This document shows, piece after piece, positions 62,202-63,230 of a stretch of 64,000 nt of DNA; within the stretch, counting starts at the first letter, position 1; each line of letters begins with the position of its first letter. Both the position numbers and the translations under genes were made by a program. Where the stretch lies: the NCBI GenBank assembly GCA_964016885.1, contig OZ024741.1, positions 186,186,001 through 186,250,000 on the forward strand, given 5' to 3'. The notes below the pieces were generated by a model. It did no database searches. It was not told where the DNA came from and saw only the letters and a list, made by a program, of their open reading frames with translations. Origin of the DNA: Eledone cirrhosa (taxonomy: Eukaryota).

Positions 62202-62206
<5 letters not shown>

Positions 62207-63229
62207 TATGAAGAGAGAAGAAACATTTAGATATAATTAGTAATAAAATGTATCATAGCTAAACTGCTCCTAGATTCCTCGACTACGTAGTTTCGTGGCA
62301 TAAACAAAAACAATACATCATAAAGATATAGAGTTCTTGCGAGGTTTGCCGACTTATCAAGAGGATACCTCATTTTACTAGTCGCAAGAACGCGTCTACA
62401 CGACGTGAGAAAGAATCCCAAAAGGCGGAGGGGGAGATAGTCACGCGATATAACGGTCGAGAAACAGAGCTAAGCCTCTTATAACCCCGAAGAAAATACC
62501 ACGGAGGCGGAGGGGGTATTTATATCGAAGCCGTATTTACATCGGTGAAGTTGGCACCCTTAACTCACGGTTGGGTGCGGATGCATTCATGTATATGTGT
62601 GTGTCCGCATGTATCTGTGTGTTTCTAAATATATTGTTAATAACTCCCTCTGGTCGAGCAACCTTTGAAGTGTGGGGACTGCTGAAAAGCTTCCATTACT
62701 CATACTTCTCGCCTCCTTCACCACCTCTTCTACGGCTTCGATATAAATACCCCCTCCGCCTCCGTGGTATTTTCTTCGGGGTTATAAGAGGCTTAGCTCT
62801 GTTTCTCGACCGTTATATCGCGTGACTATCTCCCCCTCCGCCTTTTGGGATTCTTTCTCACGTCGTGTAGACGCGTTCTTGAGACTAGTAAAATGAGGTA
62901 TCCTCTTGATAAGTCGGCAGACCTCGCAAGGACTCTATATCTTTATGATGTATTGTTTTTGTTTATGCCACGAAACTACGTAGTCGAGGAATCTAGGAGC
63001 AGTTTAGGTATGATACATTTTATTACTAATTATATCTAAATGTTTCTTCTCTCTTCATAATGTATTTTTAACTCTGATACTGGTTCAGTCTAGTTCAACC
63101 GGATTGGTCTGTCCCAGTCATTCATTGAGCAACATCGGTGAAGTTGGCACCCTTAACTCACGGTTGGGTGCGGATGCATTCATGTATATGTGTGTGTCCG
63201 CATGTATCTGTGTGTTTCTAAATATATTG

Positions 63230-63230
<1 letters not shown>
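62202..63230 (+). mobile_element. Family G second copy: 593 nt unit with ~100 nt terminal redundancy and ~330 bp inverted arm
   Basis: acatcggtgaag.. at 62539 and 63132; arm 62202-62535 is the reverse complement of ~62731-63064; same outer end points as the 43917 copy. Confidence 0.88.
62901..62990 (+). ncRNA. Type I hammerhead motif with U3-A8 core (mirror copy 62276-62365 on -)
   Basis: TCCTC-TTGATAA-GT(C)GGCA...TGCCAC-GAAA-CTACGTAG-TC|GAGGA. Confidence 0.72.

Follow-up and report, generated by a model that had tools for sequence, protein, structure and literature searches.

Non-LTR retrozymes of metazoans consist of non-coding tandem units of 51-972 bp, each carrying one type I hammerhead ribozyme (PMC7229834; bioRxiv 10.64898/2026.07.22.740005), and they have recently been argued to be non-autonomous Penelope-like elements (PLEs) (bioRxiv 10.64898/2026.07.22.740005; Li, Clavereau and Pollet 2026). 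Hammerheads with a U3-A8 pair were reported in 2014 from the Cercyon PLE of Schistosoma mansoni, with ~1,300 hits (PMC4209133). Endonuclease-bearing PLEs are found in microsatellites as a partial tandem plus an inverted 5'-truncated copy with a one-sided tail (PMC8557442, PMC3846280), and two internal start sites of reverse transcriptase (RT) have been demonstrated in vitro for an Anolis PLE (PMC11167929).

A family of elements in Eledone cirrhosa likely belongs to an already known class, that of the non-LTR retrozymes, and is not a new kind of ribozyme. It resembles the metazoan retrozymes of Cervera and de la Pena (2020; PMC7229834) in its dispersal as monomers to multimers, its GC content of 43%, the presence of PLEs alongside and a unit of 590 nt within the described range, whereas its U3-A8 core and long helix II extension set it apart. 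Retrozymes with demonstrated circles have units of 220-390 nt, while the Eledone unit is longer and is known from genomic DNA and contigs. With the Cercyon hammerheads (Cervera and de la Pena 2014; PMC4209133) it shares the U3-A8 pair, the type I fold, the PLE context and opposite-strand pairs 100-700 bp apart, although the Cercyon motifs as described there are minimal and mostly single copies, and the Eledone motif has a 10-bp palindromic helix III in a non-coding tandem. The non-autonomous PLEs of Chlamys, e.g. MRC1, are likewise PLE derivatives without coding capacity; they have pLTRs and occur as head-to-tail multimers (PMC8557442).

In the window, i.e. the whole 64-kb stretch of DNA analysed, the element is present at two loci, where the preliminary description had noticed a highly similar ~593-nt unit. 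The tandem period is indeed 593 nt at both (62540/63133 in locus 2 and 44117/44710 in locus 1), with 97.5% identity across 686 nt. The repetition of the unit start, put at ~100 and ~70 nt, measures 101 nt in locus 2 and 73 nt in locus 1, and the lack of a recognisable ORF holds, the longest stop-free stretch of the doubled unit being 134 aa. On the other hand, each interval had been taken as one unit with redundant ends, and this has to be revised since two of the four arms are minus-strand inverted copies (62201-62535 and 43913-44117). By sequence comparison, locus 2 begins with a (TA)n tract (62154-62203), followed by the inverted arm (62201-62535, minus strand), which corresponds to u91-425 of the unit (u1-u593, counted from window position 62641), is 98.8% identical to 62731-63065 and passes at its outer end, site A, into (TA)n. 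Next comes a 101-nt end piece of a 5'-truncated preceding unit (62539-62640, plus strand; u492-592; 100% identical to 63132-63232), then the full 593-nt unit (62641-63233, plus strand) and again (TA)n (63231-63313). Locus 1 has the same build with a shorter inverted arm: (TA)n at 43861-43918, the inverted arm at 43913-44117 (minus strand; u221-425) terminating at site A, the 73-nt end of a preceding unit at 44115-44188 (plus strand) and a full unit at 44189-44776 (plus strand) terminating at site B. Each locus is a back-to-back insertion of a forward partial tandem and an inverted arm within (TA)n, and this pattern makes copying by Penelope-type retrotransposon enzymes likely.

The sequence TCCTC-TTGATAA-GTCGGCA is found in all four arms (+44449, +62901, -44077 and -62365), as first described. 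The hammerhead of the locus 2 forward arm (62901-62990, plus strand; u261-350) is of type I with the U3-A8 core, an extended helix II and a palindromic helix III, and its GUC lies at 62983-62985 (plus strand), with cleavage predicted after 62985 (u345). The inverted arms contain hammerheads with an intact core at 62276-62365 and 43988-44077 (both minus strand). In the locus 1 forward arm (44449-44538, plus strand), G12 is replaced by A at 44520, and therefore this hammerhead is predicted to be dead. The assignment of one hammerhead with a U3-A8 core to each unit is upheld, with G12A in this arm as a correction, and the supposed stem II loop of ~45 nt folds instead as a long helix II extension. 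With one hammerhead per arm, neither locus has two on the same strand, so that release of a monomer by double cleavage is impossible from either; the two window copies are end products. A scan of the whole window against Rfam at the gathering threshold gives no match to a hammerhead family and only a tRNA (41733-41805, minus strand).

The motif has the features of a type I hammerhead, namely the core boxes, the 3-8 pair, G12-A13-A14-A15, a UH site and three helices, and 97% of cells are paired over 35 hammerhead variants, with the exception of G12A in the locus 1 forward arm. Lack of TTGATAA conservation across copies had been named as a reason to abandon the hammerhead, but U3-A8 proves to be fixed: in the 22-mer context genome-wide, position 3 varies in only 12 copies, all of which keep A8. 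The same survey finds no C3-G8 version in the family, and therefore covariation at the 3-8 pair is absent within it. The 3' half of the hammerhead, which is not fixed by the search pattern, has diverged at 15 of 2,344 bases (0.6%), as against 3.0% outside the hammerhead and 4.6% in the helix II extension; on this sequence evidence, purifying selection acts on the hammerhead. In the helix II extension, seven of 13 pairs change on one side yet stay paired. The whole motif shows one two-sided pair change and eight further one-sided changes that keep pairing, which is not above shuffles but far above slid controls. Folding of the unit gives z-scores of -5.6 for the hammerhead strand and +0.2 for the opposite strand (30 shuffles each). 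When two copies are cofolded, the minimum-energy form is a double-hammerhead dimer of -62.5 kcal/mol versus 2 x -24.4 kcal/mol for the single forms. As for dimers in a related system, eight of nine Xenopus retrozyme dimers are given as lacking cleavage (bioRxiv 10.64898/2026.07.22.740005).

An exact 22-mer spanning helix I, the core and helix II matches the 3.0-Gb genome 5,985 times and its reversed control never, so that the family is not due to chance; an anchor outside the hammerhead has 4,818 matches. The first 100 of the 5,985 matches group into 58 loci, which scales to ~3,500 loci. In these 58 loci, same-strand hammerheads are spaced by 590-597 nt with a single case of 607 nt, at least two same-strand hammerheads occur in 23, and neighbouring hammerheads on opposite strands are divergent in 11 cases and convergent in none. 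The description as a non-coding tandem unit is supported, with a period of 590-597 nt and without an ORF. Both old and young members belong to the family: an older subfamily of 82-86% identity has the same ~590-nt tandem, the same ends and the same hammerhead, and the very young locus L155 (G000:C1:50595799-50600375) consists of ~5+3 units with at most one base difference across most comparisons.

The unit might be no more than the pLTR of some longer PLE with coding capacity, in which case the copies would be 5'-truncated insertions. Hammerheads do sit in pLTRs, PLE copies are mostly truncated, and the opposite-strand hammerhead pairs of Schistosoma, 100-700 bp apart, have been so interpreted (PMC4209133). 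This explanation, which had been named as one that would overturn the retrozyme reading, is largely refuted here and has very little probability left. In the mapped loci (the 30 top-scoring ones and the first 40 of the 58 in order of position), upstream of the unit comes a further unit, an inverted arm or flanking DNA, the last mostly (TA)n. No PLE ORF is joined to the unit in 41 loci; PLE protein matches near six of them are separate insertions or distant matches. The best similarity between the unit and 19 PLE ORFs is E 0.03 over 15 residues, and the older subfamily is likewise a tandem of ~590 nt. In L135 the unit abuts a Neptune pLTR; a chimera was considered, but the two read as adjacent insertions.

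A set of 68 loci served for counting the insertion ends: locus 1 of the window, 27 top-scoring loci and 40 sampled by position. Left out of it were L014, because of its overlap with L004, and two loci that are likely segmental duplicates of L008, namely L009 and L016; one of the two twin insertions of L130 was kept and an old fragment of L125 was removed. Two fixed outer ends are found, and the single common outer end in (TA)n of the preliminary description is not upheld, although PLE-type mobilisation, which it had deduced in part from the different redundancy lengths, is supported. Site A (u419-426) lies 80 nt beyond the predicted cut and site B (u585-593) ~165 nt further. An A end is paired with a B end in 40 of 43 two-armed loci, with no A+A and no B+B case (p ~7e-13), and in 22 of 23 within the position-sampled set alone; the three exceptions comprise one spurious 34-nt simple-repeat match and two loci with an arm ending elsewhere. 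Among loci with a single arm, 13 have an A end, 11 a B end and one neither. Genome-wide, 2,622 junctions of the A end with TA are present, and the insertions sit in a (TA)n microsatellite target. The 30-nt blocks directly before the ends have diverged by only 0.5% (A) and 0.9% (B), and we infer that the conserved blocks at 63031-63065 (terminating at u425) and at 63181-63232 (with site B, u587-593) on the plus strand of locus 2 mark the first and the second RT start site.

The paired A and B ends are the one-sided tail of PLEs at four to five times its usual length. The Eledone insertions are similar to those of endonuclease-bearing PLEs in the partial tandem plus inverted copy, the microsatellite target and the two RT starts that define the tail (PMC8557442, PMC3846280, PMC11167929), but the unit has no ORF and its tail is ~165 nt compared with 30-40 bp. 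Two-armed insertions with paired ends are not among the retrozyme features described in the available parts of the relevant reports (PMC7229834; bioRxiv 10.64898/2026.07.22.740005). Inverted arms resemble twin priming or terminal inverted repeats, and an overlap of 1-5 nt is seen at most inversion junctions, both in favour of another origin, in which a LINE or a DNA transposase would mobilise a SINE-like or MITE-like repeat and the hammerhead would be a passenger. We regard such an origin as highly improbable because the insertions end at two distinct positions of the unit rather than at mirror termini, a poly(A) end is absent and the arms are longer than the unit. The geometry of L1-type twin priming in particular is rejected, since the 5' ends of B arms range over the whole unit without stopping at site A.

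Units and arms of one insertion differ little at 54 subfamily-diagnostic sites (1.5% within an arm and 1.2% across arms, versus 24-29% between loci, in a comparison made before the duplicate loci L014, L009 and L016 were dropped). They share subfamily alleles, and so one template, or identical ones, served each insertion. Copies longer than the unit fit a circle and an uncut linear tandem transcript equally. The same element could be copied by the same PLE helper from the latter, with cutting rare or late and no circle involved in insertion, and to this we give a substantial chance, somewhat short of even. In its favour, the 5' ends of the arms are spread over the unit with none of 111 within u340-352 (2.4 expected), so that a footprint of cleavage is absent from the genomic copies, and 147 segments run unbroken across the cut site. 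Cleavage is also dispensable in vitro for the Anolis PLE, hammerhead mutants of which insert normally (PMC11167929). Moreover, units differ from one another within an arm in three loci, alternating on both arms in L007; a private allele shared by some but not all units is seen in three of 68 loci (L004, L007 and L030), an observation that has no explanation under a pure monomer circle and speaks for the additional occurrence of multimeric templates or later duplication. Against a linear template, 27 locus-private alleles are common to all units of their locus, up to eight of eight in L155 (106 are confined to a single unit), arrays of 5+3 near-identical units exist, the hammerhead is conserved by selection, and constant 5' truncation would be expected to shorten arrays in a linear-only cycle. 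The all-unit private changes fit repeated copying of one unit, or copying of a young homogeneous tandem. Under a looser rarity rule, A>G and T>C make up 17 of 31 all-unit changes versus 28 of 132 single-unit changes (p 0.0005), and this different spectrum points to a step other than DNA decay. A strand bias indicative of RNA editing among the shared changes (10 A>G versus 7 T>C, p 0.06) is not established.

In a contig of run X4 (1,396 nt, depth 182), unit positions 62968-63007 are joined to genomic sequence that is single-copy and is preceded by a splice acceptor at C22:8279896. On the same strand, 3.7 kb upstream, there is a copy of the element; its GT donor comes after C22:8276205, and one private base of this C22 copy fits the start of the contig. 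In the window the corresponding donor is at 63003-63014 (plus strand), with the exon ending at 63007, 22 nt beyond the predicted cut; it is the one used by the C22 copy, and its 12-mer is unaltered in 146 of 156 segments. The exon after the acceptor opens a 363-aa frame of the Anp1 family. Thus at G000:C22:8275624-8281127 (L174, L175) a copy of the element gives a spliced 5' exon including the cut site, as seen in one contig of run X4, which suggests that host genes can acquire leader exons from elements of this kind. None of the runs is recorded as RNA; we infer that run X4 is RNA-derived and that the C22 copy gives rise to hammerhead-strand transcripts, at least partly uncut. X4 also covers the full unit and its junction at a depth of ~110-160 with alleles of a 591-nt subfamily, which are seen at several sites in about half of the sampled loci. 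This hints that transcription across the unit junction is real, from one run whose contigs are blind to strand, ends and circularity. Runs X5 and X6, from other organisms, contain near-identical contigs of low depth, one of which extends 621 nt over the junction and fits tandem DNA as well as a circle.

Coding PLEs of the Neptune type are present in the genome with long RT-GIY-YIG open frames of 938 and 1,096 codons, and copies of the L061 family are ~97% identical in protein; the clade names Neptune and Poseidon are presumably appropriate, as read from the CxxxxCxxC linker. U3-A8 cores occur in the Neptune-type families L061, L067/L073, L078, L080 and L063, and canonical cores in L064 and the Poseidon-like L071. 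The hammerheads of the U3-A8 Neptune families are minimal, and L067/L073 reads GCAA instead of GAAA. The U3-A8 core can therefore no longer count as a novelty of the Eledone unit, being published for PLE hammerheads (PMC4209133) and found in these coding families. Inverted insertions with two ends are also seen in coding families, with tails of ~65 nt (L061), 44 nt (L064) and 33 nt (L063), and in L061 the distance from the cut to the first end is nearly equal to the 80 nt of the unit.

Some other repeats of the window have hammerheads of their own. The stretch 55080-55220, part of a two-armed insertion, is a 3' region of the coding PLE family L064, and its hammerhead is canonical and near-palindromic. 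The 3' end of another PLE family lies at 45240-46000 (minus strand), 465 nt from locus 1; it is 91% identical to the L149 element, in which a C-terminal GIY-YIG and a hammerhead with a canonical core are present. Canonical-core type I motifs of other repeat families are located at 9600-9665 (minus strand) and 21335-21385 (plus strand), and the latter type recurs in tandem ~500 nt apart in L071. A dispersed ~190-nt repeat at 20595-20786 and nine other places, partly in tandem, is probably a SINE.

The RT plus GIY-YIG ORF between pLTRs that marks an autonomous PLE is absent from the unit. Chlamys non-autonomous PLEs generally resemble an autonomous family at the 3' end (PMC8557442), but the Eledone unit has no such partner among the eight families compared: in local alignments, their 3' regions are at or near the level of shuffles, and the best one (2/200 shuffles) is a match in a TG-type simple repeat. 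This search covered 50 of the 150 listed GIY-YIG matches, from 10,596 candidates. Three pattern searches (a shorter helix II, the same helix III, and an exclusion pattern at site A) returned only family members, deletion forms and chance hits.

Collectively, the element is, with considerable confidence, a high-copy non-coding tandem of ~590 nt with a U3-A8 hammerhead, likely a non-autonomous PLE or non-LTR retrozyme that is copied in trans by a Neptune-type RT/GIY-YIG protein. In the proposed cycle, a tandem locus would be transcribed on the hammerhead strand, and two hammerheads would pair via the 10-bp palindromic helix III and may excise a monomer. The monomer would then be ligated into a circle, for which the chances are about even; otherwise the uncut tandem transcript would be the template. 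The PLE protein would nick a (TA)n tract on both strands. From one nick, cDNA would be primed internally at site A, 80 nt beyond the cut, and from the second nick at site B, ~165 nt on. The two cDNAs would extend over the cut site and the unit junction, terminate at varying positions and become linked to each other by their far ends, in most cases with an overlap of a few bases. A more elaborate version is improbable though conceivable: a circular 590-nt U3-A8 RNA might be copied on both strands by a dimeric Neptune RT with subunits forced to different starts 165 nt apart and, in addition, the C22 copy might act as an Anp1-family 5' leader exon with a dimer-dependent hammerhead 22 nt before the donor, to which free retrozyme RNA could pair and cut off the mRNA cap in trans.

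No description of the Eledone family was found in the literature on retrozymes and hammerheads, including that on octopus and on the C3U and G8A changes, although repeat libraries (Repbase, Dfam) and the bioRxiv supplements may contain it. The main text of a paper on Octopus vulgaris repeats (PMC13282606) contains none of the words hammerhead, ribozyme and retrozyme. In this genome, with U3-A8 in several coding PLE families, the number of hammerheads is underestimated by searches limited to CTGANGA. The template circle and the mechanism of two-armed insertion are still open in the PLE literature considered here, and with its thousands of young copies, strict A+B rule and long tail, the Eledone family is a clean substrate for both questions.
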